Shown here: positions 5,159 through 44,688 of the stretch, one piece after another
Layout: each line of letters opens with the position of its first letter
Position numbering within the stretch: the stretch's first letter is position 1
DNA from: an uncultured virus (IMG/VR IMGVR_UViG_3300028553_000005)
Lineage: Duplodnaviria; Heunggongvirae; Uroviricota; Caudoviricetes
IMG/VR virus record: IMGVR_UViG_3300028553_000005
Span: 62,001-126,000 of that record
Direction: 5' to 3' (one strand)
Length of the DNA: 64,000 nucleotides
Notes under the pieces: model-generated
What the model saw: only the letters and a program-made list of their open reading frames with translations
What the model was told of the DNA's origin: nothing
Databases searched by the model: none
Made by a program: the position numbers and the translations under genes

Positions 5159-6886
5159 TTATGGAGCAATTGAAGTAATGGCAAGAACACCTCGTCCTGC
5201 ACTTATAAAACTCCACGTGGTGCTTGCTCCCACTTGCACAGGACTGGATCGGTTGGTTTGATTATTTTGTCCTAACTGCCCGTTACTATTGTCACCCCAG
5301 GCCCACATTGTGCCATCTGTCTTGGTGGCCAATCTATTCTGACTACCGGTTGAAGATGCACTTATTAAATTCCAATTTGTTCCTGTTCCCACCTGTGTTG
5401 GGCTGGACCTATTACTGATGTTACCGAGTCCTAACTGTCCAACATTATTGCGACCCCAGGTCCACAAAGTACCGTCAGTCTTGGTGGCCATAGAACCATA
5501 CTCTCCACCACTAACCAGACTCCAATTAGTTGATGTACCAATTTGTGTAGGACTGAGTTTTGTATAAGTTGAAATTTCGTTGAGTCCTAAAGAACCGTAG
5601 TTGTCATTTCTGCCCCATGCCCACAAGGTACCGTCAGTCTTAATAGCTAAACACTGAGAGGTGCTAATACTTATTCTATTCCACGTGGTATTTGCACCCA
5701 CCTGTACGGGGCTGGATCTATCAACTGTATCGCCAAGTCCTAATTTGCCCATGTAGCCTTGGCCCCAAGCCCACAATGTGCCATCAGTTTTGATAGCAAT
5801 AGAAGATGCTGAAGAAGTGTCAATACGGTACCAATCTGTTCCTGCTCCTACTTGTACTGGACTGGATCTGGCAACTGTATTACCAAGTCCTAACTGTCCT
5901 TGTGTGTTAACGCCCCAGGACCACAAGGTGCCGTCAGTCTTGGTGGCCATAATACTGTAGTTACCAACACTAACAAGGTTCCATGTTGTTGCTGTTCCTA
6001 CCTGTGTTGGGCTGGATCTGGCGTAAACTGTATCATTATGACCTAACTGGCCATTAGTATTGTATCCCCAAGTCCATAGAGTACCATCGTTTCTGATAGC
6101 TGCAGAATTGGTTGCACGGCTACTTACTGACTTCCAAGTTGTTCCTGTTCCTACTTGTGTTGGACTAAGCGTGTATCCCCCACTTGTATTTAAACCTCCA
6201 ACACCAAATCCATTCATACCCCAAGAATATAATCTTGTCAGCGGTGTTAGTGTCACAGTTACTTGGAATGTTTTGCTTGAATCTTGTAACTCAGCATCTG
6301 TAGCTACAACACTAAATGTGTATGTGGTTTGAGCACCAATAGAAACTGTACCAGAGAAATATCCGTTGGCAGCTAATGTTGTACCGGTTGGTAATGTAGA
6401 GCCGGCTGCTAAAGAATAAGATGTTGCACTAGTAGCACTAAGGTTAACACCAAAGGCTGTATTGGCTTCTTGATTTGCCAATGGACTTGCAGTGATCCAA
6501 GAAGGTTCAGAGCTGTATGTGATACCAGCAACTTTAATACCAACGCCACCATCAGGATTAACCACATAAAGATTATAAGATGCCGCTGATTTTGTAGGAA
6601 CTTGAACTTGTAGTGTTGTTGAATTTACATATGTAACGGCTGAAGCAGGAGTTGTGTCGATTAATATGGTGGCACCAGATTGAAATTCGGCACCAGTAAC
6701 AACAATGTAACCACCACCTACGTTAACCGCTGTATCATTTAATACTGTAAAGGTATTACTGGCCACGTTGGCATAGAGAACTTTAGGTGCTAGTGTTTTG
6801 GCAAAGGCTGCCGTGGCTGTATTACTTAATTGTACTGTGTCAATTGTGTAACTGGTGATCTGGTTTCCAAGAATCTTTGTGGTCAT
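5159..6886 (-). CDS. IPT/TIG + Ig-like + RCC1/BLIP-II-like beta-propeller protein (putative adhesin)
   Basis: Repeated blades KTDGTLW(S/A/T)WG.N..GQLG....RSSPVQVG; N-terminal ITGAEFQSGA..VTYVNSTTL-type IPT-like domain. Confidence 0.85.
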   Translation of the reverse strand: MTTKILGNQITSYTIDTVQLSNTATAAFAKTLAPKVLYANVASNTFTVLNDTAVNVGGGYIVVTGAEFQSGATILIDTTPASAVTYVNSTTLQVQVPTKSAASYNLYVVNPDGGVGIKVAGITYSSEPSWITASPLANQEANTAFGVNLSATSATSYSLAAGSTLPTGTTLAANGYFSGTVSIGAQTTYTFSVVATDAELQDSSKTFQVTVTLTPLTRLYSWGMNGFGVGGLNTSGGYTLSPTQVGTGTTWKSVSSRATNSAAIRNDGTLWTWGYNTNGQLGHNDTVYARSSPTQVGTATTWNLVSVGNYSIMATKTDGTLWSWGVNTQGQLGLGNTVARSSPVQVGAGTDWYRIDTSSASSIAIKTDGTLWAWGQGYMGKLGLGDTVDRSSPVQVGANTTWNRISISTSQCLAIKTDGTLWAWGRNDNYGSLGLNEISTYTKLSPTQIGTSTNWSLVSGGEYGSMATKTDGTLWTWGRNNVGQLGLGNISNRSSPTQVGTGTNWNLISASSTGSQNRLATKTDGTMWAWGDNSNGQLGQNNQTNRSSPVQVGASTTWSFISAGRGVLAITSIAP

Positions 6887-10128: not shown

Positions 10129-10841
10129 GTTTCTAATCTATCATTACGAATTGTTGAACGGCCTTCTAGAGGTCTGCCAAGTATGGTTGTTTTAAGATTA
10201 CCATCTTCTTCTCTTTCTTTAACATCATAGGCGTAGATACCCATCTGATAAATTGGAAATATATCGGCTCGAAGAATGATATCTAATGGCGCACAGATAC
10301 CAAATTTAATTACATGAGAAATCATATTTTTTGCCACAGCAGGATCAATGGCATATGCATGAGCCCTACAAATAAAATGATAGTTTGGTCCTTCTGATGC
10401 ATGAGTAGGTGTTGGTAGAACTGGCCAACCACCGTTGACCTGTTCATTATTACCTAGATATGCGATTGAATTAAATACGGCATGCTTGAGATATGGTTGA
10501 ACCATAATCGAATCATGTTCTAAAATAACAATTGGTTGGTCTATCTCAACACACTTAGCCCACAAAGAAATATGGGACAATGCACAAGCCACTTCACCTC
10601 TCGTCAAGTAATGATCTGTGATTTTCATCATTTTCATTACTGAACTATTTTTAGAATGTTCCGGCTCTTTGATGCGCCGAGAATAACCATCATACGCATC
10701 CCAATACTCGTAAGGCATTTTTACTTGATTACAAGATTCGGCACATCGTAAGGCCACATCTTCAGATTTTTTATTATCTTTAACCCGAATGATGTAAGCC
10801 TTATCTACATCCATATTATACGAAAAAAACAAAGAATTCAT
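10125..10841 (-). CDS. Glycosyltransferase family 25-like
   Basis: YWDAYDG, LTRGEVACALSHISLW, ILEHD, AHAYAI. Confidence 0.82.
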   Translation of the reverse strand: MNSLFFSYNMDVDKAYIIRVKDNKKSEDVALRCAESCNQVKMPYEYWDAYDGYSRRIKEPEHSKNSSVMKMMKITDHYLTRGEVACALSHISLWAKCVEIDQPIVILEHDSIMVQPYLKHAVFNSIAYLGNNEQVNGGWPVLPTPTHASEGPNYHFICRAHAYAIDPAVAKNMISHVIKFGICAPLDIILRADIFPIYQMGIYAYDVKEREEDGNLKTTILGRPLEGRSTIRNDRLET

Positions 10842-10858
10842 AACAAACTTTCAAAAAA

Positions 10859-11281
10859 TTACATTAGTGCGTCAACATCCTCATGTGTAGCGGCTGCATT
10901 AACTTGAATAACACGAGCATCTCTAGTTGACTTGGCGGCTTCAATTTCAGCTTCAAGTGTGGAGATTTGGTCAGCAAACTCTGGTATATTACGCTTCATT
11001 TGCAATTGGTTTTCTAAACGAATTACTTCAAAATTGGCTTGACCAATTAAAGAACCTTTACGCTCATCAACTGACAACTCACGCTTACCCCAAACAATCT
11101 CAATTGGATTTTTGGTAATATCAAATGTATGTGTTGTAAGAATTTCACGGTTAGGTGTGAGGTCTGGAGTAATCTCTACGGCTGCACTCCAACCGGATTG
11201 ACCTTCTGGTGCTGGTGTATCCCAGCAATCTGTTACCTTACCATTCTGAACTCGAACATTATAACCTGATCTTGTTGGCAT
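10859..11281 (-). CDS. Hypothetical protein (possible fibre assembly chaperone)
   Basis: 140-aa ORF with AGGAG ribosome-binding site; helical C-terminus ending AAATHEDVDALM. Confidence 0.5.
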   Translation of the reverse strand: MPTRSGYNVRVQNGKVTDCWDTPAPEGQSGWSAAVEITPDLTPNREILTTHTFDITKNPIEIVWGKRELSVDERKGSLIGQANFEVIRLENQLQMKRNIPEFADQISTLEAEIEAAKSTRDARVIQVNAAATHEDVDALM

Positions 11282-11293
11282 TACTATCTCCTA

Positions 11294-13054
11294 TTACTTT
11301 TTAAAATTTTGTAAATCGACTTTGATCTGATCAAATGGAGCAGACCATTCTCCAAATACTTCTTGGCGATACAGCTTCACCGAATCATACCAGACTGTTG
11401 TGTTTCCTGGTGGAGCCCACAAATAGTAAGGCAATTTAGGTACTACAATCCATGTTGGTATTCCCATGGCACCACAGAGATGTGCAACAGAGGTACATGA
11501 TGTGATAATTAAATCACATGATGCAGCCGCTATTCGTGTTTCTTCCCAATGACCTAGTGGTACTTCTTTTACCCAATATGGTTTGTATTGAGAACCCTCA
11601 TCTCGTTGCAGTGATATAAATTCTGCATCAACATCTTCTAAGGCATCAAATAGTTTTGTTGGTGGGAATATCCGATGTTGTTCATGTTCGAACTGTGGAT
11701 TACCTTGCCACCGTAGACCGATTCTCAAACCTTTATGTGGTTCTACTAATGGTTTATTTATGTATGGTTTTCCTGATATGTCCTTGTATTCGTAACCAAG
11801 AATGGGTATCGTGGACATGGATGGTGCCCAATAATCATGTACAATACCATATACAGCATCACTCTGGCAGACCGCCACGACTCCTTCTATATCACGGAAT
11901 AGTGTCGCCAACGAACCGGAACACGCCACAATCACTTCTCCAGCAATCTTTGCAATATCCCTTGCGTAACGAACTCCGTGTATCTGGTCACCTAATCCAC
12001 CTTCTAGATTTAATAATACGGTACCTTTTGATTTGCCGTCCCACATTGGCATTGGTGATTTTGGTGGTTCATTACCAAACACTCCTTCGTCACGACCACG
12101 GAACAATAGTTTTTCACCTTCTAAAAGTTTACCATGTTGCATGAGATACCAACCACGATTAAAAGCGGCACGATTATTCCATGGTTCTTCTTTCTCTAAT
12201 TTCTGTGCTATCTTCCAACCTTCTTCAAAGTTACCCATTAGACCAGCAGCCAACTGTAAATCAAGGTCGTGAATAGGTTTATTGGCAACTTTTTCTCCTA
12301 ACCAAAATCTTGGTTGTACGAATTCATAATAACGATGCTTCAATACATCTTTAGAATCTTCTTTGTGTTGATAACCTAATTTTGGTTTAACATCATGAAG
12401 GCCTTTTACTTCCCAAATTTCTTCATCTTTTTCTTGTAGATTGGTACCATCAATGGCATTTAAATCATATTCAAAATCTGGTAATTCTAAAAACTCATGA
12501 ACTCGTTTTAATTCTTTTTGTGGATCATTCATCAGATCATCATAGTCAATAATTAAAAAACATTCAGGTGCAAATGAATATCCTTTTTCAAATGTTTGAT
12601 ATGATTCTTTGAGGTGTTTAATCAGGTCATCTTTGAGTAAAAAATGATCCAAATTTTTTGGTTTAGCCACACGAACAAAAGAAGCGGCACAATCTTCTAC
12701 ATTACGAACTGTGGCAATAATTTTAGGTTTATGTCCAAGAACTTTAGACATGGTACGCATGTTCGTATCATCAGCCCAACCTCTAGCTTTATCAAGAATG
12801 ATGGGTTTATCAATGTCATGATATTGAGTTTTACAGATGTTATTTAAAACATGCTGAATCTTTTCTTCTTCCTTTTTCTGATCCGTTTGAGCTCTAGTGG
12901 TCAAACTATCAGCCCATGCTCTTAGAGTACCTACTAGGGTATCTAAAAGATTAGAAGTGGATGTGGCATGAATGCTTGGATTTTGGCTAAGAATAGCAGC
13001 CAATACTGTTGAACCAGAACGTGGAAGTCCTGAAAGAAAATATATGTTTTTCAC
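11294..13054 (-). CDS. Sulfotransferase + TPR-like + GT-B (GT9-like) glycosyltransferase fusion
   Basis: 5'-PSB loop SGLPRSGST, 3'-PB-like TVRNVEDCAAS; helical AAFNRGWYL segment; EGGLGDQI and DLIITSCTSVAHLCGAMG; GTG start. Confidence 0.82.
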   Translation of the reverse strand: MKNIYFLSGLPRSGSTVLAAILSQNPSIHATSTSNLLDTLVGTLRAWADSLTTRAQTDQKKEEEKIQHVLNNICKTQYHDIDKPIILDKARGWADDTNMRTMSKVLGHKPKIIATVRNVEDCAASFVRVAKPKNLDHFLLKDDLIKHLKESYQTFEKGYSFAPECFLIIDYDDLMNDPQKELKRVHEFLELPDFEYDLNAIDGTNLQEKDEEIWEVKGLHDVKPKLGYQHKEDSKDVLKHRYYEFVQPRFWLGEKVANKPIHDLDLQLAAGLMGNFEEGWKIAQKLEKEEPWNNRAAFNRGWYLMQHGKLLEGEKLLFRGRDEGVFGNEPPKSPMPMWDGKSKGTVLLNLEGGLGDQIHGVRYARDIAKIAGEVIVACSGSLATLFRDIEGVVAVCQSDAVYGIVHDYWAPSMSTIPILGYEYKDISGKPYINKPLVEPHKGLRIGLRWQGNPQFEHEQHRIFPPTKLFDALEDVDAEFISLQRDEGSQYKPYWVKEVPLGHWEETRIAAASCDLIITSCTSVAHLCGAMGIPTWIVVPKLPYYLWAPPGNTTVWYDSVKLYRQEVFGEWSAPFDQIKVDLQNFKK

Positions 13055-13148: not shown

Positions 13149-14957
13149 CTATGATAATTTGGCAAACCCGGCGTAAGGCCCCATACTAACTAAAGTCCAA
13201 TTTGTTGCTGATCCTACTTGTATTGGACTGGATCGGGTAACTTTATCATTTCTTCCTAATTGGCCATAATTATTTTGTCCCCAAGACCACAATGTGCCAT
13301 CTGTTTTGGTGGCCGTAAAACTATACGCACCTCCACTAATTAAACTCCAATTTGTTTCTGTTCCTACTTGTGTTGGACTGGATCTATAAACACCTCGATT
13401 ATTGTGTCCTAATTGGCCAAAATCATTTTTTCCCCATGTCCATAAAGTACCATCAGTTTTAGTAGCTGCTTGTATAGGACCGGGTGCACCGATAACAAAA
13501 TTATTTAAACTCCAATTGGTATTTGCTCCAATTTGTACTGGACTCGACCTACGAACTGTATCATTTCTTCCTAATTGGCCATTGTTATTATATCCCCAAC
13601 TCCATAGTGTGCCATTAGTTTTGGTGGCTATAGTATAATTATCTCCGAGTTTTGCTTGACTCCAAGTTGTATCTGATCCTACTTGTATTGGACTGGATCG
13701 GGTAACTCTATCATTTCTTCCTAATTGGCCTTCTTCGTTAATTCCCCACATCCATAAAGTACCATCAGTTTTGGTGGCCGATACAACTCCCACTCGACCA
13801 ACACCTATTTTACTCCAAGTAGTTCCTGATACTTGAACTGGACTAGATCGGTTAACTCTATCATTGCGGCCATGTTGACCAGAATCATTTTGTCCCCATG
13901 TCCATAAAGTACCATCGGTTTTGATAGCTGCAAAGAAATAGGGGCTGATACTTATCAATGACCAATTGGTATTTGTTCCAATTTGTACAGGACTGGATCT
14001 ATTGACTCGATCATTATGTCCTAATTGACCATTACTATTATTTCCCCATGACCATAGGGTACCATCAGTTTTGGTGGCCAACACAGAATACCTTGCCGTA
14101 CTTATTTGATTCCAATTTGTATCTGTTCCTACTTGTGTTGGACTGGATTTAGAAGAAGAACCAATATTTAATCCATCTTCTCCATTCCCAGAATGAAAAC
14201 CCCACACATATAATCCTGGCGCTGGACCTATCGTTACCGTCAAACTAAATGTACGACTTGCATCTTGATTTTCAACGTCAGTTGCTTTCACATCGAATGT
14301 GTAAGTTGTTTGTGTACCAATTGTTACAATACCAGAAAATAATCCGTTAGCGGCCAATGTAGTACCAGCAGGTAGCGATGTGGTGTTTGCATAAGTTATT
14401 GATGAATCGGAGTTTGCGCTCAGATTAACAGAAAAAGATGTATTGGCATTTTGGTTACTTAATGTTGCACCGGTGCTCCATGCTGGGAATGAACTTGTTG
14501 TCAATCCATTAATTCGAATACCTGTACCTCCATTACTGTTAACGACATATACAGGATATGAAGCCGCTGTGAGTGCTGGAACTTGTGCTCTGAGTGTTGT
14601 TGAATTTACAAAAGATACCGCAGGAGCCGCAGTTGATCCAAATACCACAGTTGAACTATTGGTAAATCCTGATCCAGTAATAACAACATATCCACCAGTA
14701 GTATTGGCTGCCGTATCATCTAAAATATTATAAGATGAATCTGCAATTTGAATTGTAGTAATTAGTGGAGATGCTGAGTTTGCCAGTATGGCTGCATTGG
14801 TATTTGCAGTTGCAAAAGCAGCAGCTGCCACAGCAGTAGCAATAGTTGCAAGAGTGTTTGCATTAGTTGCAGTAGCTAAACCACTTGCAACAGATGAATC
14901 AAGTTTATCTGAAGTAATTGATGATGCGAGGATATTGTTTGCTGTTATTTTTGCCAT
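13149..14957 (-). CDS. IPT/TIG + Ig-like + RCC1-like propeller protein
   Basis: Repeated KTDGTLWSWG..GQLG.ND.V.RSSP.QVG blades. Confidence 0.85.
   Translation of the reverse strand: MAKITANNILASSITSDKLDSSVASGLATATNANTLATIATAVAAAAFATANTNAAILANSASPLITTIQIADSSYNILDDTAANTTGGYVVITGSGFTNSSTVVFGSTAAPAVSFVNSTTLRAQVPALTAASYPVYVVNSNGGTGIRINGLTTSSFPAWSTGATLSNQNANTSFSVNLSANSDSSITYANTTSLPAGTTLAANGLFSGIVTIGTQTTYTFDVKATDVENQDASRTFSLTVTIGPAPGLYVWGFHSGNGEDGLNIGSSSKSSPTQVGTDTNWNQISTARYSVLATKTDGTLWSWGNNSNGQLGHNDRVNRSSPVQIGTNTNWSLISISPYFFAAIKTDGTLWTWGQNDSGQHGRNDRVNRSSPVQVSGTTWSKIGVGRVGVVSATKTDGTLWMWGINEEGQLGRNDRVTRSSPIQVGSDTTWSQAKLGDNYTIATKTNGTLWSWGYNNNGQLGRNDTVRRSSPVQIGANTNWSLNNFVIGAPGPIQAATKTDGTLWTWGKNDFGQLGHNNRGVYRSSPTQVGTETNWSLISGGAYSFTATKTDGTLWSWGQNNYGQLGRNDKVTRSSPIQVGSATNWTLVSMGPYAGFAKLS
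13208..13730. repeat. 58-bp near-identical direct repeat between propeller blades
   Basis: 13208-13265 vs 13673-13730, one mismatch. Confidence 0.85.
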
Positions 14958-14962
14958 GTAAT

Positions 14963-16513
14963 TTATGCATTTCTTTTTGCGATTGATGAGTAGTGTCCAG
15001 CATATACTTCACTCCAATCTGTTGCTGTTCCAATTTGAACAGGACTGGATCTGTTATTTATATCGTTTTGTCCTAATTGACCATTACCGTTATTTCCCCA
15101 AGACCATAGTGTGCCGTTAGATTTTAATGCCGTTACTCCATGATAATCACACACGGCATTTAACCAAGTTGTTTCTACTCCAACTTGAACTGGACTGGAT
15201 CTCTGAATTGAATCATTTAAACCTAATGATCCATATTCGGTATTATTCCATCCCCAAGTCCATAGTGTGCCATCAGTTTTAATACCTACAGAATTTCTTG
15301 ATGTTGAAATTGTATTCCAAGTACCTGTACCTATTTGTACCGGACTGGACCTATTAATTTTGTTATTTAATCCAAGTTCGCCTAAAGAATTTGATCCCCA
15401 TACCCATAGTGTACCATCTGTTTTAATAGCTGCAGGATAGGCCGTATCACAAGGACTTTCGGAGAATTTTAACCAATTTGTTAACGCACCAATTTGGACC
15501 GGAGAGGACCTATCAATTGTCGAATTGTTGCCAATTGCATATCCTGGACCCCAAGCCCATGCCGTGCCATCGGTTTTAATAGCATAAAGATTGTATGCTG
15601 CAGTTTTAATTTGAGCCCAATTTGTCATTGTGCCAACTTGAGTTGGACTGGACCTATCGGTTATACTATTTAATCCTAAAGCGCCATAATTACCATAACC
15701 CCATGTCCACAATGTACCATCAGTTTTAATGCCTGCAGAAAAATAATAACCAATGCTTATGGAAGACCAATTTCCTGTACCAATTTGAGTTGGACTGGAC
15801 CTATTAATTATATCATTTAATCCTAAGTTACCACGAAAATTTCGACCCATCGCCCACAAAGTTTTTGTTGGTGATTTTCCTTTTAAAAGTAATGTATGTG
15901 CAGCTCCACTAGTAGCGTTTGACCACAAATAAGCTTCACCAATTTGAACAGGACTGGACCTAGCAATTGCATCATTTGTGCCTAATTGTCCAAAAAAATT
16001 TTCTCCCCATCCCCATAGATTAGACAATTGACTACCAGGAAAATCACTTGTTATTAAACCTCTTGGTCGAATTGCAGTACCGCCACTACTATTCACCACA
16101 TATACAGGATAAGTTCCTGATGAGATGGCTGGAATCTGTGCTCTAAGTGTGGATGAATTCACCAATGTGGTTGTTAATGCGGTGTTACTGGATCCAACCA
16201 CAACAATTGCGCCGGATTGAAAATTGGAACCTGTAATTTGTAAGTATGCACCGGTGGTATTGGCTTCGGCAATATTTAGAACATTATAAGATGAATCTGT
16301 AACTGATACTACATTAATTGTTGGAGGCAAAGCGGCAAGCTCTTGAGTTTGTAATGTAACAAATGTATTAACTGCTTGTGCGGCCACATTGGCAGCAATT
16401 GCCAAATCATTAGCAATACCTGCGGCATTAAATGTGTTTGCTACACCAGAATCAAATACAAAAGACTTGATTGAGTTGTTTGCAATATTAATCGCACGGA
16501 CATATTGAGTCAT
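14963..16513 (-). CDS. IPT/TIG + RCC1-like propeller protein
   Basis: Same blade consensus; lacks the Ig-like linker domain of its paralogues. Confidence 0.85.
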   Translation of the reverse strand: MTQYVRAINIANNSIKSFVFDSGVANTFNAAGIANDLAIAANVAAQAVNTFVTLQTQELAALPPTINVVSVTDSSYNVLNIAEANTTGAYLQITGSNFQSGAIVVVGSSNTALTTTLVNSSTLRAQIPAISSGTYPVYVVNSSGGTAIRPRGLITSDFPGSQLSNLWGWGENFFGQLGTNDAIARSSPVQIGEAYLWSNATSGAAHTLLLKGKSPTKTLWAMGRNFRGNLGLNDIINRSSPTQIGTGNWSSISIGYYFSAGIKTDGTLWTWGYGNYGALGLNSITDRSSPTQVGTMTNWAQIKTAAYNLYAIKTDGTAWAWGPGYAIGNNSTIDRSSPVQIGALTNWLKFSESPCDTAYPAAIKTDGTLWVWGSNSLGELGLNNKINRSSPVQIGTGTWNTISTSRNSVGIKTDGTLWTWGWNNTEYGSLGLNDSIQRSSPVQVGVETTWLNAVCDYHGVTALKSNGTLWSWGNNGNGQLGQNDINNRSSPVQIGTATDWSEVYAGHYSSIAKRNA

Positions 16514-16519
16514 TTGAAA

Positions 16520-18244
16520 TTAATTTGAGGTAATAGCTATTGTGTGAGAATGTCCACCTACAATTTTACTCCAATTTGTATTTGTTCCTATTTGAACTGG
16601 ACTACTTGATGATATACCTGAATTTAATCCTCGTTTTCCATTACTACCATCTCCCCATGACCAAAGAGTGCCATCAGTTTTAATTGCTATAGCATGTGTT
16701 TGGCCGGTGCTTATTTCACTCCAATTTGTATTTGTTCCTACTTGAACCGGACTGGATCTATAAATTGTATTGTTAATTCCTAATTGACCATAAGCATTCA
16801 TTCCCCATGCCCATAAAGTGCCATCAGTTTTAATTGCAAAACTATGGTTCTGAGCTGCAGCCACTTTACTCCAAGTTGTTCCTGCAACTTGACTTAGATT
16901 AGAAACGTTGGACACGTTATTACGTCCTAGCTGGCCCGTATCATTATTTCCCCATGCGTAAAGAGTATTATCTGTTGATCTAACAGCTAAACAATGAGCA
17001 CCACCAAGAGCTATCGAACTCCATACTGATCCATCTATTAACTGTGGAGTTGTTTGTGTGGTTGTATTAAAGTTTCCTATTTGTCCAGAACCATTATGGC
17101 CCCATGACCAAAGTGTGCCATCAGTTTTTGTGGCCAAACCATTTTTTTCTGAAGCTAATATTAGATTCCATGTAGTACCTGAACCAACTTGAACAGGACT
17201 GGATTTATAACTACCACTACCAATGCCATCACCTAACCGGCCGTCATTGGTAACTCCCCAAGACCACAAGGTGCCATCAGTTTTTGTAGCTAAAGAATGA
17301 AGCGGTCCTACTGCTACTCTGTTCCAATTTGTTCCTGTTCCTACTTGAATTGGACTGGATCTATTAACTGTATTATTTTGTCCTAATTGGCCATAACTAT
17401 TACGACCCCATGACCAAAGTGTGCCATCCGTTTTTGTTGCTAAAGTATGTGTGCTGTCAAAATAATGATTGGCCGCTCCTATATTATTCCATGTAGTACC
17501 TGAACCAACTTGAACAGGACTGGAATAACTTGTTTCACTATTTTGACCTAATTTTCCATAACTACCAGAACCCCATAACCATAATTTTGTTTGTGGTATT
17601 ACTGTGACAGTTAAGCTAAATGTTCTAGAAACATCCTGATTTTCAGCATCGGTGGCTTTCACATCAAATGAATATGTGGTCTGAGCACCAATAGAAACTG
17701 TACCAGAAAAATATCCGTTAGCAGCTAATGTTGTACCAGCTGGTAATGCTGTAGTATTGGAATAAGTTATTGATGAATCGGAGTTTGCACTTAAACTAAC
17801 TGAGAAGGCTACATTTGATGATTGATTACTTAACGATGATCCAGTTGACCATGCTGGAAATGAACTGTATGTTATACCATTTACTTTAATTGCTGTTGCA
17901 CCAGTGACACTATCAACCACATATAAAGGATATGATGCTGCAGCCAAGCCAGGAACTTGAGCTCGTAACTGTTTTGTATTTGCAAATGTGGTACTAGTAG
18001 CATTAGTCGTACCAACAATAACAACAGACTGATTCGTAAAACCCGTTCCGTTAATTACCAAATAACCACCACCTGTATTAGCTGCTGTATCATCTATAAC
18101 ATTATAAGATGAATCGGCAATTTGCACACTACTAATGGCCAAAGAAACAATGTTTGCAACGGCTGCATTGGCTGCTTCGGCTGCCGCTAACTTTGTAGTA
18201 ATTGTATTATCTAAATTTGATGTTGTTATTTGTGTAAACGCCAT
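16520..18244 (-). CDS. IPT/TIG + Ig-like + RCC1-like propeller protein
   Basis: Same blade consensus and N-terminal domains as 5159..6886 and 13149..14957. Confidence 0.85.
   Translation of the reverse strand: MAFTQITTSNLDNTITTKLAAAEAANAAVANIVSLAISSVQIADSSYNVIDDTAANTGGGYLVINGTGFTNQSVVIVGTTNATSTTFANTKQLRAQVPGLAAASYPLYVVDSVTGATAIKVNGITYSSFPAWSTGSSLSNQSSNVAFSVSLSANSDSSITYSNTTALPAGTTLAANGYFSGTVSIGAQTTYSFDVKATDAENQDVSRTFSLTVTVIPQTKLWLWGSGSYGKLGQNSETSYSSPVQVGSGTTWNNIGAANHYFDSTHTLATKTDGTLWSWGRNSYGQLGQNNTVNRSSPIQVGTGTNWNRVAVGPLHSLATKTDGTLWSWGVTNDGRLGDGIGSGSYKSSPVQVGSGTTWNLILASEKNGLATKTDGTLWSWGHNGSGQIGNFNTTTQTTPQLIDGSVWSSIALGGAHCLAVRSTDNTLYAWGNNDTGQLGRNNVSNVSNLSQVAGTTWSKVAAAQNHSFAIKTDGTLWAWGMNAYGQLGINNTIYRSSPVQVGTNTNWSEISTGQTHAIAIKTDGTLWSWGDGSNGKRGLNSGISSSSPVQIGTNTNWSKIVGGHSHTIAITSN
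17165..17524. repeat. 39-bp identical direct repeat between propeller blades
   Basis: attccatgtagtacctgaaccaacttgaacaggactgga at 17165-17203 and 17486-17524. Confidence 0.85.
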
Positions 18245-18253
18245 TTTTTATCC

Positions 18254-19318
18254 TTAGATTGACATCTCTCTAATTTGAACGACCACATTGGCTACTGGTG
18301 CGGTTACAAATGTTAATGTTACTCCACTTACTGTGTAATCTGATACAGGCACTTGACAGATACCGTTTTCATATACAAACATTGAGTTGGCTGTTTGACC
18401 TGCTGTTACAGTAAATAAGGTTTGTGCACCATTTGCTGTGTATCTACGCATTACAGGTTGTGTTAATGGCACCAACTTATTAGTTGGCATCTCACGAATC
18501 TGTATGGTTTCATCTGATTGTGGAGTTAACACATAGGTTAATGTTGTACCACTTACTGTATAATCATCACCAGGGAATTGACACACACCATTGTTAAACA
18601 CCATGACTGTATTTGCGGTGTGTCCAACTGAAATTGTAAATGTGTTGGTTGATCCGTTACCTTGATAAATTCGTGTTGAGTAAGCAGTAGGGCTTACATT
18701 CATAATACTACCAGCAACTGTGGTCACTTCTATTGTATCATTGGCTGTTGCTACGCCTGTAAGAATAACATTTGCAGCAGCGATAGAATATGTGCCTTTT
18801 TCTTGATAGACACCATTTAAAAATACAAATGTGTTATCTTCAGAATCAGGCACAGCAGACAATGTAAATTGTGTTTGACTACCATTACCTGTAAATGTAT
18901 CTACTGTTGCAGTGAATGAAGTTAAACTACCACCACCTGCACCACCTGAACCTGCGGCTGCATTTGCTGTATTGGCTAAAGTGTAAGCATCGTTGGCTTT
19001 ATTAAATGCAGCTTGTGCTTTCGTATCAGCAGCAGTTATATTGGTGTTTTGAGTTGTGTCTACACCTTGTAGTATGGTGATATTTGTATTCTGTGTGGTA
19101 TCAACACCCTCGATGATTGACATACGTGTATTTTGTGCTGTGTTTACACCTTGAATAATTGTAATATTATTGGTTGCAGTATTGGCCAACACAAAAGCTT
19201 CTGCAACGGCTGTACCAAGATCCACACCATTAGCAGTAATCGAAGTGGTAGTAACATTACCAAACACAAAACTTGCTGTGTTACTGATTGCATCTGGTAG
19301 TATTTTTAATATTGGCAT
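18254..19318 (-). CDS. Fibre protein with three C-terminal repeated beta domains
   Basis: Three roughly 65-aa units starting FTGNGSQTQF, YQGNGSTNTF, YTANGAQTLF, each with NG.xQ....Y(S/T). Confidence 0.65.
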   Translation of the reverse strand: MPILKILPDAISNTASFVFGNVTTTSITANGVDLGTAVAEAFVLANTATNNITIIQGVNTAQNTRMSIIEGVDTTQNTNITILQGVDTTQNTNITAADTKAQAAFNKANDAYTLANTANAAAGSGGAGGGSLTSFTATVDTFTGNGSQTQFTLSAVPDSEDNTFVFLNGVYQEKGTYSIAAANVILTGVATANDTIEVTTVAGSIMNVSPTAYSTRIYQGNGSTNTFTISVGHTANTVMVFNNGVCQFPGDDYTVSGTTLTYVLTPQSDETIQIREMPTNKLVPLTQPVMRRYTANGAQTLFTVTAGQTANSMFVYENGICQVPVSDYTVSGVTLTFVTAPVANVVVQIREMSI

Positions 19319-19343
19319 TTACAAACCTTTTATTCTTATTGTT

Positions 19344-19351
19344 TATTTATT
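19344..19351 (-). promoter_or_regulatory. Late promoter variant AATAAATA
   Basis: Intergenic, upstream of AAAGG and ATG at 19318. Confidence 0.5.
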
Positions 19352-19361
19352 TGTTTTGTAA

Positions 19362-21230
19362 TTAAGCTATTGCCCAATTTTGTAGCACTCTTATACCAGC
19401 ATAACTAGGCGGAGTACCACTAATTATTTCTGTAAAATTCAAATTATCATTACTTGCACTAACTGTTATATTACTTACATATCGGGTAGAATCATCTGAA
19501 CTACCTATTCGTAAAAATTTTACATCAGTACCTACATATTTTTCAGATCCCATATCGTAATCAACTACAAATGGCAGAGGATTCATATTAGTATCGTCCA
19601 GCGCTGTAGCATTTTGATTATTCAGATTTGTTAATGATCCAGCACTAGGAGCTACAGGAGAAGATAATGTTTGTGTGATATAATTTCCAGCACTATCTCT
19701 AAATGATAATTCTGTTAATTGAGCTTGCGAGCCGCCACCATTTACTGAATTTAATGTTACTCTAAAATATCTATATGATTGCAAAAACGTAATTGCTCCA
19801 GAAGAAGTAAATTTATAATATCTGTATCCACCAGAAGTTGTTACTGTTGGTGATCCAGTTGTTGAAGTTGCAAGTGCAAATGAATCAGGATACCTGAATA
19901 TACAAACACCAGATCCACCGGCAAACATTCTACCACCACCGCCTCCTCCAGTATTTGTTGAACCAGCACTAGTGCCTCCTGTGCCACCACCACCGGTGCC
20001 ACCAAGACCGTTAACGGCTCCATAGCTGTTAGATCCTGTACCTCCACCACCAGCATAATAAGTTCCATCTAACCATTGTTTTCCAGCACCGCCAGCACCT
20101 CCGCTAGTTCCAGAAACACCTACTGCTCCAGCTCCACCACCACCACCTCCAGTATATGGAGCTCCGGTTTGGTTTGCGCCTCCAGCATTTCCATATCCAG
20201 TTCCGCCATTATTACTTGTTTGTATGGAATTTCCTACATTTGTTACGCCGCTGTGTATTCCTCCGCCACCACCTGAACCTCCATCTTGGCCATTATAAGA
20301 ATAAGGTTGTGATGATCCTGCACCGCCACCCATACCTCCACCATAAGTGAGTCGTGTTATAGAAGAATTAGCTAAAGTCGAATTGTCACCTCTTTGTGAA
20401 CCTGAAGCACCACCAGCACCTATCGTAACAGTATAAGCCAATCCACTTCCTGTTATTGTTCCTTCTAACCAACCGCCAGCGCCACCACCGGCACCATCAA
20501 CTGTACCACCAGTTCCAGAACCTCCGCCTGCACCACCACCTGCTATTAACAAATAGTCAATCGATGTCGGCACAGGTAAAAAAGCACTGACAGTTAAATT
20601 AAATGTTCTGGTAGAATCTTGATTTTCAACATCTGTAGCTTTAACACCAAATGAATAAGTATTAGCTGATGTTATGGTACCATAATAATATCCATTGGAC
20701 AATAAATTAAAGCCTGTTGGTAGTATTGTGGTATTCGAGTATGTAACTGATGAATCTGATGTTGCGGATAATGTATTAGAAAATGCAATATTAGATGTTA
20801 CATTAGCTAAAGTTGTTGATGTTAACCATTGTGGCATGGTTGAAATAACAAATGAACTAGAGTATAAAGCACCTGATGAATTTGAATTGTAAACCGATAC
20901 TGCATAGTTTCCTGTGTTTGAAACAGGTAATTGAGCTCTCAATTCTGATGAATTTACAAATGTAACATTGGCTGTTGGTATCATCGTACCATTAAGAAAC
21001 ACATTCGCTGTTGAAGTGAAATTACTACCAAGAATACGAATATATGAATTGCTGATTGCAGCAGCCGTATCATCTAAAGTATTATAACCACTATCAGTTA
21101 CAACAATAGATGAAATAGAAGGACCTGTAGACGCACCAGAATTTACCAATCTGACAGATGTTGTAACAATCTGACTATTCTTGGCTGTTTCTTGTCCTAT
21201 CTGAGATTGGCTTGCTGTTGTAATTGCCAT
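19362..21230 (-). CDS. IPT/TIG + Ig-like + glycine-rich + discoidin/galactose-binding-like protein
   Basis: N-terminal half like the RCC1 paralogues; IDYLLIAGGGAGG domain; C-terminal SYRYFRV...ITVSASNDN. Confidence 0.65.
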   Translation of the reverse strand: MAITTASQSQIGQETAKNSQIVTTSVRLVNSGASTGPSISSIVVTDSGYNTLDDTAAAISNSYIRILGSNFTSTANVFLNGTMIPTANVTFVNSSELRAQLPVSNTGNYAVSVYNSNSSGALYSSSFVISTMPQWLTSTTLANVTSNIAFSNTLSATSDSSVTYSNTTILPTGFNLLSNGYYYGTITSANTYSFGVKATDVENQDSTRTFNLTVSAFLPVPTSIDYLLIAGGGAGGGSGTGGTVDGAGGGAGGWLEGTITGSGLAYTVTIGAGGASGSQRGDNSTLANSSITRLTYGGGMGGGAGSSQPYSYNGQDGGSGGGGGIHSGVTNVGNSIQTSNNGGTGYGNAGGANQTGAPYTGGGGGGAGAVGVSGTSGGAGGAGKQWLDGTYYAGGGGTGSNSYGAVNGLGGTGGGGTGGTSAGSTNTGGGGGGRMFAGGSGVCIFRYPDSFALATSTTGSPTVTTSGGYRYYKFTSSGAITFLQSYRYFRVTLNSVNGGGSQAQLTELSFRDSAGNYITQTLSSPVAPSAGSLTNLNNQNATALDDTNMNPLPFVVDYDMGSEKYVGTDVKFLRIGSSDDSTRYVSNITVSASNDNLNFTEIISGTPPSYAGIRVLQNWAIA

Positions 21231-21559
21231 TAACTAATCTCACTACCATATGCATTGATGCTTACAAAAGAAGTATTTGCATTGGCAGTAAGAACATCTG
21301 TAGCAGCCAATGTAATACCGAGTGTTAACGAAACAGTATCATTACCTGGAACGGGAGTATCATAGTTAATATAATGTTTAGCTGCAAGTGCTTCACCAGA
21401 TGGCCGAACAGCCAATCTAAATGTAGCACCTGTGTTTGCCTGATTACATACTGTAACAGTACTCAATATGGTACTTGTAAGAGATGGCACAGTATACACA
21501 GTTGTTGCTGTGTGTGCTGTTGGGTTAATTTGTCCTAGAACTTTATATGTTATTGGCAT
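21230..21559 (-). CDS. Small beta-rich virion adaptor-like protein
   Basis: YKVLGQINP...TVYTVPS...VTVCNQ...YGSEIS. Confidence 0.55.
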   Translation of the reverse strand: MPITYKVLGQINPTAHTATTVYTVPSLTSTILSTVTVCNQANTGATFRLAVRPSGEALAAKHYINYDTPVPGNDTVSLTLGITLAATDVLTANANTSFVSINAYGSEIS

Positions 21560-21569
21560 TTTATTTCCT

Positions 21570-22907
21570 TTAAGCGCCCATCAATAAGAATGGACTAATA
21601 ATATTATTAACTGTATATAGTGTGGTATTGGATGTACCAATTGTTGTTACTTCTATAATCTGAGTATTGGCTGGTGCAGAGGTAAATGTAAGTGTTGTTC
21701 CAACAACAGAGTAAGCAGACCTTGGTTGTGTAACACCACCAATCACAGCCGTTGTATAGTTAATAGTTGCTGGTGTTGTTGATAATGTGTATGCAACAGT
21801 TGAACCATCACCTGTGAATGTATCAACAGTAGAAGTTAATACGGCATCAGATGTGTTTGCTTTATTAAAGGCTGCTTGTGCTAATGTTGTTGCTGTATTA
21901 GCTTGAGTGAATGCAGCATTGGCTGTTTGTCTAGCAAATGTATCAGCACCACCAGCAGTGTTAGCTGCATTAAAGGCTGCTTGAACGTATGTTAGTCCAG
22001 CAATCTTTTCGTAAGTTGTTCCGTTGTTGGTAAATTCCCAAGCCGTATTGGCTTCAGACCATAATAGTTTTGTATTGGTAGAAGAACCACGATTGACTTC
22101 AATACCAGCACTTAAAGAAGGTGCACCAGTTACATTTGAATTCAATGTAATGATGTTATCTTTGACAGTTAAGTTTTCTGTGTTTGCATATACGGTGGCA
22201 CCAGTAATTGTTAAGTTTCCTGTTACTACTGTATCACCAGTAATTGTACCACCAGATGATGAGAATTTTGTATTGGCTGTATTGAAAGCTGCCTGTGCCA
22301 GTACATTGGCTGAGTTTGCTTTATCAAAAGCGGCTTGTGTTTGTGTTTCTGCATTACCAATTCTAGTATTTTGTGTTACTTCAATACCAGCAAACAAAGA
22401 ACTAAAGTTTGCTAAATCACTGGCTACAGTATTGGCTTTTGCAAAGGCCGAATTAGCATATTGATTGGCCGCATTAGCTTGTGCAAAGGCTGCGTTTGCT
22501 TGGCCGTAAGCTGAACCAGCTAAAGAGTTGGCTGCATTAGCTTGAGCATAAGCTGAATTAGCATATTGATTGGCCGCATTAGCTTGATCAAAAGCAGCTG
22601 CACCTGTGGCCGCTGAAGCGCCAGCAGATGTTTGTACCGAACCATCTGAGAATGTAATACCATTGGCACCAGTAACATAAATGCCACCTGTATATAAATT
22701 ACCTGTGATGCCTACACCACCAGAAACGATTAACGTGCCTGATACATTTGATGTGGAGATTTGTCCTGAAGATAAAACTAATTGGCCGATAGTAGCGGAG
22801 TTAATTGAACCGTTTCTTTTCCAAGCACCAAGCGCAGCATTCCATTGATAAACAATGCCGTTTACTAGAGCGGTTTGATTATTTGCCGGTGAGGTTGGAA
22901 ATGCCAT
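21570..22907 (-). CDS. Fibre protein (coiled-coil modules, one FTGDGS beta domain)
   Basis: MAFPTSP N-terminus; AQAAF..AN modules; 32-bp direct repeat 22450-22481 / 22555-22586; C-terminal ISPFLLMGA. Confidence 0.65.
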   Translation of the reverse strand: MAFPTSPANNQTALVNGIVYQWNAALGAWKRNGSINSATIGQLVLSSGQISTSNVSGTLIVSGGVGITGNLYTGGIYVTGANGITFSDGSVQTSAGASAATGAAAFDQANAANQYANSAYAQANAANSLAGSAYGQANAAFAQANAANQYANSAFAKANTVASDLANFSSLFAGIEVTQNTRIGNAETQTQAAFDKANSANVLAQAAFNTANTKFSSSGGTITGDTVVTGNLTITGATVYANTENLTVKDNIITLNSNVTGAPSLSAGIEVNRGSSTNTKLLWSEANTAWEFTNNGTTYEKIAGLTYVQAAFNAANTAGGADTFARQTANAAFTQANTATTLAQAAFNKANTSDAVLTSTVDTFTGDGSTVAYTLSTTPATINYTTAVIGGVTQPRSAYSVVGTTLTFTSAPANTQIIEVTTIGTSNTTLYTVNNIISPFLLMGA

Positions 22908-23315: not shown

Positions 23316-24719
23316 TTAACCTAATATAGCCAGGCCAGCATATAGAGTGGATGTGGCTCGCAACCAAGTTGTTCCTGTTCCGACTTGAACGGGACTTGAT
23401 CTACTAGTGGTTGAACCCAATCCTAACGGACTGGTGCCGCCACCTGCATTGCCCAATCCCCAAGACCATAATGTACCATTTGTTTTAGTTGCTAGTGTAA
23501 ATTCATTATTTTTACCACAAAAAACTTCACGCCAAGTTGTATCGGTTCCTATCTGAACAGGACTGGAATAATTATTTGTGTTATTTGTACCTAATTGGCC
23601 TCGATTATTATTTCCCCATGCCCATAGTGTTCCATCGGTTTTGATTGCTAGAGCTCTATCACCACTCATAGAAACGTTTGACCAATTTGTTCCTGTTCCG
23701 ACTTGTGTTGGACTGGACCTATGAGATGTAGTGTTATGACCAAGAGATAGTCCTGGAGCTCCCCAAGTCCACAATGTTCCATCAGTTTTAATTGCTGCAC
23801 TATTTCGAGTTCCAGCGGAAACTTTTGACCAATTTGTTGATGATCCATTTTGCACAGGACTATCTGTTATTACATATGGGCTAGATTCATTTAATCCTAA
23901 AGCACCAGTATTACTTGGATTTCCATTTGTACCCCAAACCCACAAGGTACCATCGTTTTTAACTGCTAATGTGTGAGTATATCCACCGACAACCTCTGCC
24001 CAAGTTGTTAATGATCCTACTTGTGTTGGTACATAGGTAAAATAACCAGGTCCTCCATATCCTATACCTGATTGTCTATATGAATTATCACCCCAAGCCC
24101 ATAATGTGCCGTTGTCTTTGATTGCAAATGAAGTATTGTATCCGGCTGAAACTTTATTCCAATTCGTAGCGCTTCCAATTTGTATAGGACTACCTACTGA
24201 AGTTATACTATTGTTACCCAATTGTCCGTTACCGTTAAATCCCCAAGCCCACAAAGTATAATCAGATTTTTTTGATATAGTATGATTGTGACCAGCAGAA
24301 ATATTCATCCAAGTTGTTAGAGATCCAACTTGAACTGGACTTAAAACACCCCCACCTCCGGTACCTAAAACTCCGTATGTGTTATTACCCCATGTATACA
24401 AATAACCATAGTCTGGTGTTTGAGAGGTATCAGTAATTACAATTGGGCTTGCGGTATTTACTACTGGTGTACCATCTAATGAGCCAGTAAGAATTTGAAT
24501 ACCTAAAGTTTTAGTTCCATCTGTAGCATCATCCGCTGAAATTGTTACATTCCATACAGCACGATTATTTGTAACTGTAATAGAACCCGTATTACCGCCA
24601 ACAATATCCGAATTGGTGGTGTTACCCGTGGTCTTCCAATACAATGTGGTACCATCGGCTGTGTTGGTTGTAGTTACTGTAAATTGTACCGTAGTGTTCG
24701 AGGTTTCATTTAATGGCAT
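23316..24719 (-). CDS. RCC1-like propeller protein with a different (Calx-beta/Ig-like) N-terminal domain
   Basis: VQFTVTTTNTADGTTLYW N-terminus; same blade consensus. Confidence 0.8.
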   Translation of the reverse strand: MPLNETSNTTVQFTVTTTNTADGTTLYWKTTGNTTNSDIVGGNTGSITVTNNRAVWNVTISADDATDGTKTLGIQILTGSLDGTPVVNTASPIVITDTSQTPDYGYLYTWGNNTYGVLGTGGGGVLSPVQVGSLTTWMNISAGHNHTISKKSDYTLWAWGFNGNGQLGNNSITSVGSPIQIGSATNWNKVSAGYNTSFAIKDNGTLWAWGDNSYRQSGIGYGGPGYFTYVPTQVGSLTTWAEVVGGYTHTLAVKNDGTLWVWGTNGNPSNTGALGLNESSPYVITDSPVQNGSSTNWSKVSAGTRNSAAIKTDGTLWTWGAPGLSLGHNTTSHRSSPTQVGTGTNWSNVSMSGDRALAIKTDGTLWAWGNNNRGQLGTNNTNNYSSPVQIGTDTTWREVFCGKNNEFTLATKTNGTLWSWGLGNAGGGTSPLGLGSTTSRSSPVQVGTGTTWLRATSTLYAGLAILG

Positions 24720-24728
24720 TTCTAATCC

Positions 24729-25808
24729 TTAACTTACATTAGATGTGATGGTGTATTGAACAAGAATATTGGACGATATCAGTATTGGTCCAGAAATATC
24801 AATCCAATTATTACTTACACCATCATATGAATACATATACAATGTTTCATCTGTTAAACTTAACCATAAATCACCAACAGTATTACCTGTAGGTGCTGTG
24901 TTACTTGATGTTGCTCGAGCACCAGAGTTTGCTCTGTTGAAAGCAGCTTGTGCTAAAGAATTTATGTTGGTAATATTTGTATTCTGTGTAACATCAACAC
25001 CTTGAGTATAAATGGTGTTTGCAGAAACGGTGTTTGCTGTTGTTCTAGCATACGAATCTATGCCTGTTGCAGCTGTTGTTTGTGTGGTACCATCCGGGAA
25101 TGCTACATTACCTTTAAAGTAGTCTGCATTAACATTAGCTTTAGCAAATGAAGCATGGTTAATATTAACATTGTTATTTGCAGTAATTTCAGGAGTATAA
25201 CCTTTAAATACATACCATTCTTTTGTGTCAGGATCTCTTATGAATCCTGTGTGTGCATTGGTGCCATCATTGTAGTGACCACTAATACCAATGTCTAATA
25301 AATCGGATGTATAATTTCCTGTTCCTAATGTTATTAAAGAATCGATAACAGTAAATGAAGTTGTATTGATTGTTGTTGTTGTACCTAGTACAGTCAAGTT
25401 TCCTGTAACGGCTAAATCTTGTGATACATTTAATGATCCAGTGATTGTACCACCTGAAGATGACAACTTTGTATTGGCAGCATTAAAGGCTGCTTGTGCA
25501 TTAGTTTCTACGGCTGTAAGTCTGGTGTTCTGTGCAACATCAACACCAGAGAGATATAATGTATTTGCTGAAGCAGTGTTTGCCTCTGAGTATGCAGCTT
25601 CACCAATTGATCCACGAATTTCAGCTTGAGCAGTCCACTTACGACCACCTGGAAATGTACTATCATAAATTAATACATCACCAGTATTACCTGTACCAAG
25701 ATTTGGCTCAGCAGAACTTAGGTCTAAGTATTGATATCTATTAGCTGCAACGTTAGCTGCACTAGTTACAGGTACACGGCCACTAATTAATCTGGATTTG
25801 GTCGACAT
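24729..25808 (-). CDS. Fibre segment protein
   Basis: AEPNLG N-terminal motif; DIGISGHY..HTGFIRD domain shared with 29221..31029; C-terminal APTGNTVGDLW. Confidence 0.6.
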   Translation of the reverse strand: MSTKSRLISGRVPVTSAANVAANRYQYLDLSSAEPNLGTGNTGDVLIYDSTFPGGRKWTAQAEIRGSIGEAAYSEANTASANTLYLSGVDVAQNTRLTAVETNAQAAFNAANTKLSSSGGTITGSLNVSQDLAVTGNLTVLGTTTTINTTSFTVIDSLITLGTGNYTSDLLDIGISGHYNDGTNAHTGFIRDPDTKEWYVFKGYTPEITANNNVNINHASFAKANVNADYFKGNVAFPDGTTQTTAATGIDSYARTTANTVSANTIYTQGVDVTQNTNITNINSLAQAAFNRANSGARATSSNTAPTGNTVGDLWLSLTDETLYMYSYDGVSNNWIDISGPILISSNILVQYTITSNVS

Positions 25809-25816: not shown

Positions 25817-26158
25817 TTAAGCGTTAGCAGTTTCGAGATAAGATAATACCAATTGTGCTCTGTCGTTTGCACTAGCACTAATTGAGAATGAATCTCCAGT
25901 TTGTAATATTAATTTACCAGTTAACAGACTTGCAGCATCACTAACAGGTATGGTTGTATTTTTAATAAGTGATACTGAATTACCACTACGAACATGGTTA
26001 GCCGAAACAGTTACAGAATTAGTAGGATCAATATTTGAAACTTGTGTCAACAGAACAACAGTTGTTACACCAGCAGGTGTGGTATATACGGTTGTCGTTG
26101 ACGTTGTAACGTTGGCTGTTGTTGTTTTAAATGTATTTAATGGAATTTGTGTTGCCAT
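25817..26158 (-). CDS. Small beta-rich virion adaptor-like protein
   Basis: TVYTTPAGVTTVVLLTQVSN...KLILQTGD...SYLETAN. Confidence 0.55.
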   Translation of the reverse strand: MATQIPLNTFKTTTANVTTSTTTVYTTPAGVTTVVLLTQVSNIDPTNSVTVSANHVRSGNSVSLIKNTTIPVSDAASLLTGKLILQTGDSFSISASANDRAQLVLSYLETANA

Positions 26159-28076: not shown

Positions 28077-28084
28077 TATTTATA
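28077..28084 (-). promoter_or_regulatory. T4-type late promoter TATAAATA
   Basis: Exact match overlapping stop of 28080..28571, upstream of ATG at 28055. Confidence 0.7.
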
Positions 28085-31536: not shown

Positions 31537-31875
31537 TTACCTCGTAACTGATGGAGAAACATCTACAGAACCTTCCAATATTCTTGTAATTTGGCCATTA
31601 TTTGTTCCAATAATTTTGGTATCATAAACATAACGACCTGGGGCAATATTTGCCGTTACTGCTGAAGATAAACTAAGAGTAATTGAACCTTGACCAGAAT
31701 TGACACTCGTAGTAAACGTAGCCGTGGTGTTAGCGGAATAATGTGACTTACGAATTTGGCTCTGAGCCGTATAGTTTGTCAAATCAAAGACATCTCCATA
31801 GACATCATCAACGGTGATTGTCGTAGTGAAAGAAGTACCTTGTTCGATGTATAGATTTGAATAGGCTGCCGGCAT
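31537..31875 (-). CDS. Small virion attachment protein (BppU N-terminal-like Ig fold, tentative)
   Basis: NLYIEQGTSF...DLTNYTAQSQIRK...GRYVYD...RILEG.V.VSP.VTR. Confidence 0.6.
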   Translation of the reverse strand: MPAAYSNLYIEQGTSFTTTITVDDVYGDVFDLTNYTAQSQIRKSHYSANTTATFTTSVNSGQGSITLSLSSAVTANIAPGRYVYDTKIIGTNNGQITRILEGSVDVSPSVTR

Positions 31876-44684: not shown

Positions 44685-44688
44685 GATT

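Follow-up and report, generated by a model that had tools for sequence, protein, structure and literature searches.

Branching by XD domains is already established among phages. According to passages of the papers cited here, gp10 and the CBA120 tailspike TSP4 bind trimeric partners through XD trimers (PMC8825819), and hubs with several XD domains are known from RaK2 gp528 (PMC10253068) and φKp24 (PMC9700779). In KP32 a branching domain and a conserved peptide are each required, deletion of either abolishing RBP2 assembly (PMC13352976); KP34 has the heptapeptide MALxxLV at the N-terminus (PMC6872550); gp48 and gp49 of B2 co-purify (PMC11654681); and the fibre of P-SCSP1u has an internal XD-like domain that is unresolved in the published structure, as far as excerpts of that account go. 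In bacterial F-ENA fibres, seven-residue hooks dock in a cleft between DUF4183 protomers, and F-Anchor carries a DUF4183 domain at the end of its stalk (PMC12357932). Here we describe a fibre locus in the 136,428-base, single-contig genome of an uncultured T4-like myophage of bacteria (IMG/VR record IMGVR_UViG_3300028553_000005); the whole stretch of 64,000 nucleotides at bases 62001-126000 is referred to as the window. The locus comprises a stem gene, a hub gene and genes for heads tipped with RCC1 propellers. By analogy with T4 gp10 and TSP4 it probably encodes a branched receptor-binding fibre, in which a stem trimer would hold a hub trimer through the socket d4 and the hub would display plug-bearing heads through the sockets d2 and d3, perhaps also d1. 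The RCC1-propeller-tipped layout is most likely a new variant of XD branching. A literature search across titles and the beginnings of abstracts of the 14-25 top-ranked papers, with most subscription journals outside it, returned neither RCC1-tipped XD branching nor XD branching in aquatic T4-like phages. The parts of the system are listed below.

18254..19318, minus strand: hub, a 354-amino-acid (aa) fibre protein with a weak N-terminal plug (MPILKILP), a ~130-aa helical-type stalk and three tandem C-terminal XD (gp10-like) domains
18713..18916, minus strand: XD domain d1, subtype A, ending IEVTT (from a hidden Markov model, HMM, of the four copies and a clade tree)
18476..18682, minus strand: XD domain d2, subtype B, ending QIREM; putative socket for the M[AP]FT[QK]I-class head (sister clade of the single B domain in one-B hubs)
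18257..18457, minus strand: XD domain d3, subtype B, C-terminal; putative socket for the MAKI-class head (structure model, match to TSP4 XD2, co-occurrence)
21570..22907, minus strand: stem, a 445-aa fibre protein of helical repeats that includes one XD domain and ends in a hydrophobic tail; putative carrier of the hub
21633..21839, minus strand: XD domain d4, subtype A; putative socket for the hub's MPILKI plug (co-occurrence)
16520..18244, minus strand: head 1, with plug MAFTQITTSNL, a short helix, an immunoglobulin-like (Ig-like) stem and an RCC1 β-propeller
14963..16513, minus strand: head 2, with plug MTQYVRAINI, a TIG domain and an RCC1 propeller; accessory, present in 6/11 two-B hub loci
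13149..14957, minus strand: head 3, with plug MAKITANNI, a helix, TIG and He_PIG domains and an RCC1 propeller
5159..6886, minus strand: remote head 4, with the best-scoring plug MTTKILGNQI, TIG and He_PIG domains and an RCC1 propeller

The XD domain

The HMM of the four copies places the hub domains at aa 135-206, 214-280 and 289-354 (~68 aa each, the last running up to the stop) and the single stem domain at aa 357-428, in agreement with the original prediction of three tandem β-domains ending one protein and one copy in the other. It detected no further copy (next E 0.12) in the 299 open reading frames (ORFs) encoded by the 136-kb genome, and because it was made from these same four copies, only this absence is informative. 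The copies are 23-48% identical pairwise, with d2 and d3 at 48%. Domain d3 alone was modelled, with AlphaFold2 (AF2) and a 125-row alignment of single domains (predicted local distance difference test score, pLDDT, 95.7), and d1, d2 and d4 were assigned by alignment; a single-sequence AF2 model of the three-domain fragment (pLDDT 30.7) was discarded.

Among 48,161 PDB representatives, the best fold match of the d3 model is 7rfv, residues 188-250 of CBA120 TSP4 (Z 9.6, root mean square deviation (rmsd) 1.7 Å, 63 residues aligned), followed by residues 187-251 of the same protein in 7rej (Z 9.2). Passages of PMC8825819 identify residues 188-250 as XD2, with which the TSP4-N250 construct ends. 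Further matches include 9d84_B, a 69-residue chain of the B2 gp48/gp49 complex (Z 9.0), F-ENA fibres (Z 6.0-6.3; 9hze with Z 6.3, rmsd 2.3, 64 aligned) and, within one Z unit of the best, podophage fibre N-termini (T7 gp17, LME-1) and T5/DT57C neck chains. Residues 162-249 of 5iv5_AC, a 602-aa T4 baseplate chain, align over 66 residues (Z 6.7, rmsd 2.0); we take this chain to be gp10, which agrees with passages of PMC8825819.

The XD profile also finds the N-terminus of a K1 depolymerase (9k4a, E 9e-11), a tail adaptor (7y22, E 4e-10), a cyanophage fibre (8i4m, E 7e-8) and the podophage adaptor Gp44 (8es4, E 2.5e-5) among PDB sequences, with TSP4 itself absent from the best 60 of 621 matches. 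Antibody chains among the hits were set aside as chance matches through an F[ST]G[SN]G strand. At E<=0.01, 77/125 family members match Pfam DUF4183 and 44/125 match Phage_T7_tail, and d1 on its own matches DUF4183 (E 8e-6, 26.0 bits against a cut-off of 25.1). From the fold and sequence matches together, the hub and stem domain is assigned as a gp10-like XD2/XD3 module and not as a different domain, at the level of model and sequence; the original prediction had expected branching different from the gp10-like kind, a claim that does not hold with TSP4 XD2 as best fold match and the K1 depolymerase N-terminus and podophage adaptors as sequence matches.

The domain is very common, with 19,297 clusters (50% identity) matching the profile at E<=0.001. 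The hub fragment is matched by 124 phage records, mostly from Synechococcus phages. Of 120 listed hub homologs, 89 have three XD domains, with interchangeable N-termini. The N-termini of the hub come in at least three interchanged types, whereas d1-d3 are kept at 68-97% identity. A ~30-aa module of the FPxSPxNxQ...NGIxYxW type, which opens 21570-22907 and 4441-5085, stands in place of the MPILKI plug in most hub homologs. Some relatives have 6-9 XD copies per protein (L112:3-3929, L129:6842-10888, P0131, P0226), and the profile search also gives proteins with 20-22 matched stretches; many of the copies in such multi-XD proteins may be spacers, not sockets.

Comparison with known branching systems

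With CBA120 TSP4/TSP2 and G7C gp66 the locus has in common a ~65-aa β-jelly-roll fold (the closest being TSP4 XD2), tandem copies and nested branching tiers. In contrast to these, the XD array of the window's hub forms the C-terminus of a stalk that carries no enzyme itself, its partners are RCC1 or glycine-rich heads with a short plug, whereas those of CBA120/G7C are β-helical tailspikes docking by head domains, and its heads can outnumber its sockets. KP34 group A, KP32 and K1-5 likewise combine a shortened primary protein, whose end is a gp10-like domain, with a secondary protein bearing a short hydrophobic N-terminal peptide, and the profile matches to the podophage adaptors 7y22 and 8es4 link the window to them; it differs in being from a myophage and in having three tandem sockets, four to five plug genes, another peptide consensus and non-depolymerase tips. 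Several XD domains per protein and multi-layer trees are shared with RaK2, ΦK64-1 and φKp24, the direct sequence match being to the K1 depolymerase N-terminus (9k4a), but those phages carry 7-14 capsule depolymerases, whereas the window's block has none and uses further junction types too.

F-ENA and F-Anchor share the fold, the DUF4183 match seen on d1 and a C-terminal socket on a long stalk, and the N-terminal hook of F-ENA (~7 residues, M-P-Ψ-Ψ-K-P) resembles the hub's MPILKILP. F-ENA is, however, a bacterial, self-polymerising linear filament of small single-domain subunits on endospores, whereas the hub is a 354-aa three-domain phage protein; the phage XD copies are in tandem, and head sockets and plugs are on separate proteins. 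No literature joining DUF4183, phage and tail fiber was found, and the word 'phage' does not occur in the F-ENA paper (PMC12357932).

The plug peptide and its coupling to XD genes

The genes at 16520, 14963, 13149 and 5159 begin with a common T[KQ]IxxxN[IL]-like peptide. All four have TIG and/or He_PIG Ig-like domains followed by RCC1 repeats (Pfam RCC1, E 1e-49 to 1e-57); the peptides first quoted are exact, and the RCC1 assignment is confirmed. For each ORF in the fetched loci, coupling was measured by scoring how the next gene begins, identical 10-residue starts being collapsed. Across 177 loci a strict plug follows 23/43 genes with a C-terminal XD, 18/895 without XD (most of the 18 being second or later heads of a run) and 1/75 with an internal XD. 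In distant phages (201 loci, not independent of one another, 46 loci of the window's clade being set aside) the corresponding counts are 9/27, 7/1179 and 1/82 (Fisher p 3e-12), and a strict plug gene occurs in 0/62 non-clade loci fetched through the stalk, 51 of which are without XD. The XD socket and the N-terminal plug are genomically coupled.

A nine-column motif was learned, unfiltered, from the 27 N-termini that follow C-terminal XD copies in distant phages only. Of 135 genome ORFs it ranks 5159, 13149, 14963 and 16520 at 1, 2, 5 and 6 (hypergeometric 1.1e-6, the top-6 cut having been picked afterwards), with two non-fibre ORFs at ranks 3 and 4. The N-terminal pattern that the original prediction extended from these four genes to the hub therefore stands for the four and is weaker for the hub itself, at rank 9. 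A fifth RCC1 gene, 23316..24719, has no plug (rank 26). In distant phages the motif follows C-terminal XD genes on unrelated downstream proteins. After many of the distant XD genes comes a gene of a second N-terminal class, with an S[KR][AS]K[DN]L-type start; the XD family therefore has more than one plug. Small three-XD proteins occur in marine phages (L116-L119, L083, L088, L250), including the cultured Melnitz-3 (7605-9805), and the genes after them start with MASNSKNL, MATSKAKDLA or MASKSKII, of this second class.

Heads and their tips

Heads 1 and 3 are 56% identical over 540 aa, and a gene similar to the remote head also occurs in L102, L106, L110, L115 and L130. The heads end in RCC1 propellers or glycine-rich PF21722 domains, not in polysaccharide-processing tailspikes: behind the same plug and Ig stem, 4/17 FT-class heads carry a non-RCC1 tip (18-22% identity at the tip), in three cases the PF21722 domain. 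The tips probably bind receptors on the host surface, and the heads would then be virion adhesins, a role that is indirectly supported because the heads sit in the fibre block and tips and hub N-termini are exchanged. One paper considered as RCC1 evidence (PMC12906663) was discarded, 'RCC1' there being strain numbering.

Socket and head numbers

Sockets and heads were counted in 18 clade loci (L001 being the studied phage), hand-picked for a hub with downstream genes, with duplicates and short contigs left out; head counts cover the adjacent run and leave out remote heads. The hubs are A-B-B in 10 loci and the 5'-cut L105, and have several A domains and one terminal B in 7. All 11 two-B loci have both FT-class and AKI-class heads, plus 0-3 extra heads, whereas one-B loci have the AKI head in 0/7 and the FT head in 6/7; the d3 clade and MAKI heads thus occur together in 11/11 loci and are both absent in 7/7. 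In a tree of 72 columns, with the bootstrap not fully settled, d2 of the window clusters with the lone B domain found in one-B hubs (support 97/87). Because those hubs precede an FT-class head, the sequences suggest that d2 takes FT heads and d3 takes AKI heads.

At the next tier, a stem gene with one XD (d4) lies three genes upstream of the MPILKI-type gene in the window, L003, L097, L102 and L183, a co-inherited cassette that favours the link from stem to hub proposed originally. L196 and L197 have an XD and a second-class plug at this position, and L190 and L228 have the stem cassette with neither XD nor MPILKI gene. From this co-occurrence, d4 most likely takes the hub's own plug.

The numbers do not bear out one domain per adhesin. 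Hubs with the same three domains precede two heads (L003, L098, L100, L102), four (L002) or five (L005), and four-domain hubs precede one, so that three XD domains go with 2-5 heads and four with a single one. The original prediction had named a domain count uncorrelated with the number of peptide-bearing genes as evidence against itself, and for total domain count this check turns out against it: over 14 related loci (L130, where the first ORF downstream of the hub is a plug-less fragment, and the truncated L094, L105 and L112 being left out) rho is -0.73 for total XD count against adjacent heads and +0.79 for B count, values whose significance is not meaningful, several hubs being 5'-cut and the one-B/two-B split being one lineage event. 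Since extra heads come and go while the number of sockets stays constant, some of the heads would share a socket or be attached at another site. The docking idea as first put forward thus survives as regards XD-type trimer-docking modules genomically coupled to plugs, and falls as regards one peptide per domain.

Alternative readings and the proposed mechanism

Could the terminal domain d3 be the sole socket, with d1 and d2 as spacer beads and the other heads attached elsewhere or alternating at that site? Plugs do follow genes with a C-terminal and not an internal XD (1/82), hubs with 4-9 XD domains have mostly A-type copies and few adjacent heads, and the first XD of RaK2 gp528 has been proposed to be non-binding (passages of PMC10253068). 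We nevertheless consider this unlikely: d2 and d3 belong to one subtype, d2 is orthologous to the terminal domain in one-B hubs, the second B domain was gained together with the MAKI class in 11/11 loci, and tandem XD2 and XD3 each bind partners in gp10 and TSP4, as passages of PMC8825819 have it. Also unlikely is the strict version of the original prediction, with three sockets, three dedicated heads and an own peptide for each domain, which the variable head runs, the single head behind four-domain hubs, the negative rho (n=14) and the fourth plug-bearing head at 5159..6886 all contradict, although d1, d2 and d3 are distinct, conserved clades and a 3:3 layout with the same three head classes is found in the window, L004, L095 and the truncated L105. 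In a further reading, gene duplication has passed on the common N-terminus as a stub for trimerisation or folding, and RCC1 proteins act as decoration or inside the cell and not as fibre tips. This would suit paralogous heads (56% identity), whose N-termini could be alike by plain ancestry, and the PHROGs label 'regulator of chromosome condensation', but is very improbable given the motif on unrelated proteins after distant XD genes, the location of the head genes among tail-fibre genes that separate the baseplate genes from those of the neck, and the swapping of tips behind the motif.

In the branched fibre that we favour, the hub would trimerise through its stalk, and each XD domain would trimerise in turn, with clefts that receive the short plugs at the N-terminus of a downstream protein, a step proposed because homologous systems (gp10, TSP4, KP32, KP34, F-ENA) dock in this way. 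The stem would offer its one XD to the hub's own plug, giving a two-tier tree, and the docked heads, each an Ig-like stem with an exchangeable tip (an RCC1 propeller, or a glycine-rich domain in some relatives), would sample host surfaces. The two B-type domains would track the two core head classes (FT, AKI), with sockets and heads not matched one-to-one.

Several observations weigh against this fibre. Tail-anchor and neck proteins tie with the docking modules on fold score (T7 gp17 N-terminus Z 9.0; T5/DT57C neck Z 8.8-9.0), and because the same fold serves in these roles, it is by itself no proof of docking. In distant phages 18/27 C-terminal XD genes precede a gene without a strict plug, and 11 stalk-fetched loci have an XD yet no strict plug gene in view. 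The plug regular expression was written after the window and some distant N-termini had been viewed, which is why the motif was trained separately, and the plug alignment has no match among PDB sequences (best E 1.6). RCC1 tips are just moderately less conserved than Ig stems (44-76% against 51-90% in 13 FT heads), with the order reversed in L110, and the tail-region RCC1 genes of S-SRM01 and BUCT-ZZ01 lack the plug and have no XD gene nearby (16 ORFs checked). Finally, the d2/d3 and d4 pairings come essentially from one lineage split and one co-inherited cassette.

A bolder extension, which we regard as rather unlikely, is that aquatic T4-like phages hold a surplus of interchangeable heads (up to five adjacent genes per two B-type sockets) that compete for sockets, so that one genotype would yield mixed-tip virions, and that the socket-hook module, common to phages and DUF4183 spore fibres, is among the commonest junctions of aquatic phages. 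Heads, possibly monomeric propellers, would compete because each of the three clefts in an XD trimer would take a single hook.

Other junctions and genome setting

Two further genes between stem and hub point to a second way of joining.

21230..21559, minus strand: 109-aa phrog_1276 protein, a probable connector at the C-terminal tail of the stem, where it would make a second type of junction
19362..21230, minus strand: 622-aa protein with an Ig-like stem and a glycine-rich (PF21722) tip, plug-less (motif rank 43), probably a further head attached via the 109-aa protein

The gene for the 109-aa protein likewise follows FLLMGA-ending genes in related loci. Fibre genes with hydrophobic tails (YILALEG, FLLMGA and LSIIFGG, ending 26163-28055, 21570-22907 and 4441-5085) are each followed by a 109-124-aa gene (25817-26158, 21230-21559 and 4061-4435, respectively), a pattern that recurs in many marine and other loci, and such pairs probably represent another type of junction. 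The three connector-like proteins (~110 aa) resemble one another weakly (the score was reached in 1, 39 and 191 of 300 shuffles), and two of the three match phrog_1276. The stalk 24729-25808 ends VQYTITSNVS and is followed by the plug-less RCC1 gene 23316-24719, starting MPLNE..VQFTV; this junction occurs up to three times per locus (L002, L003, L006, L115).

The phage has no close cultured relative, the best match of its baseplate gp6 standing at 29.6%. Genes like those for gp6, gp8 and gp25 of the baseplate wedge lie at 43317-52074 (PHROG/Pfam matches), and downstream of them the fibre-like genes form a long block on the minus strand, towards genes near 241-2989 that we take to be of T4-type neck. 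The fibre-tree genes thus lie between baseplate-wedge and neck genes, which bears on a single primary baseplate anchor, and are transcribed in the order 22907>21570, 21559>21230, 21230>19362, 19318>18254, 18244>16520, 16513>14963 and 14957>13149. The proximal part of the tree and its anchor may be encoded by 26163-28055, which begins with an Mtd_N domain, 28080-28571 and 29221-31029, with N-termini that look similar, and 31537-31875, which is LtfC-like (a T5 L-fibre assembly protein). Between head genes, 6946-13054 is a cassette that codes for a sulfotransferase (11294-13054), for an APS-kinase-like protein and for enzymes that probably modify sugars; it keeps its position across the clade and may serve modification of virion proteins or of the host surface. 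In S-SRM01, RCC1 genes likewise adjoin a sulfotransferase and a glycosyltransferase. A 585-aa collagen-like, glycine-rich protein (32529-34286), possibly a hydroxylated collagen fibre, adjoins 31910-32506, presumably a 2OG-Fe(II) oxygenase-like protein from its sequence motif.

Meaning

The locus would extend XD-type branching, so far known from enterobacterial tailspike phages, to an uncultured T4-like group with non-enzymatic propeller tips. It suggests an annotation rule, by which branching of a fibre is signalled when a gene ending in an XD/DUF4183-like domain precedes a T[KQR]IxxxN[IL] gene, and phage genes labelled 'regulator of chromosome condensation' in such a context become candidate receptor-binding tips. 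The socket-plug pairs are small (68 aa and ~12 aa) and could be tested without phage culture, and the surplus of heads over sockets raises the question of mixed display.

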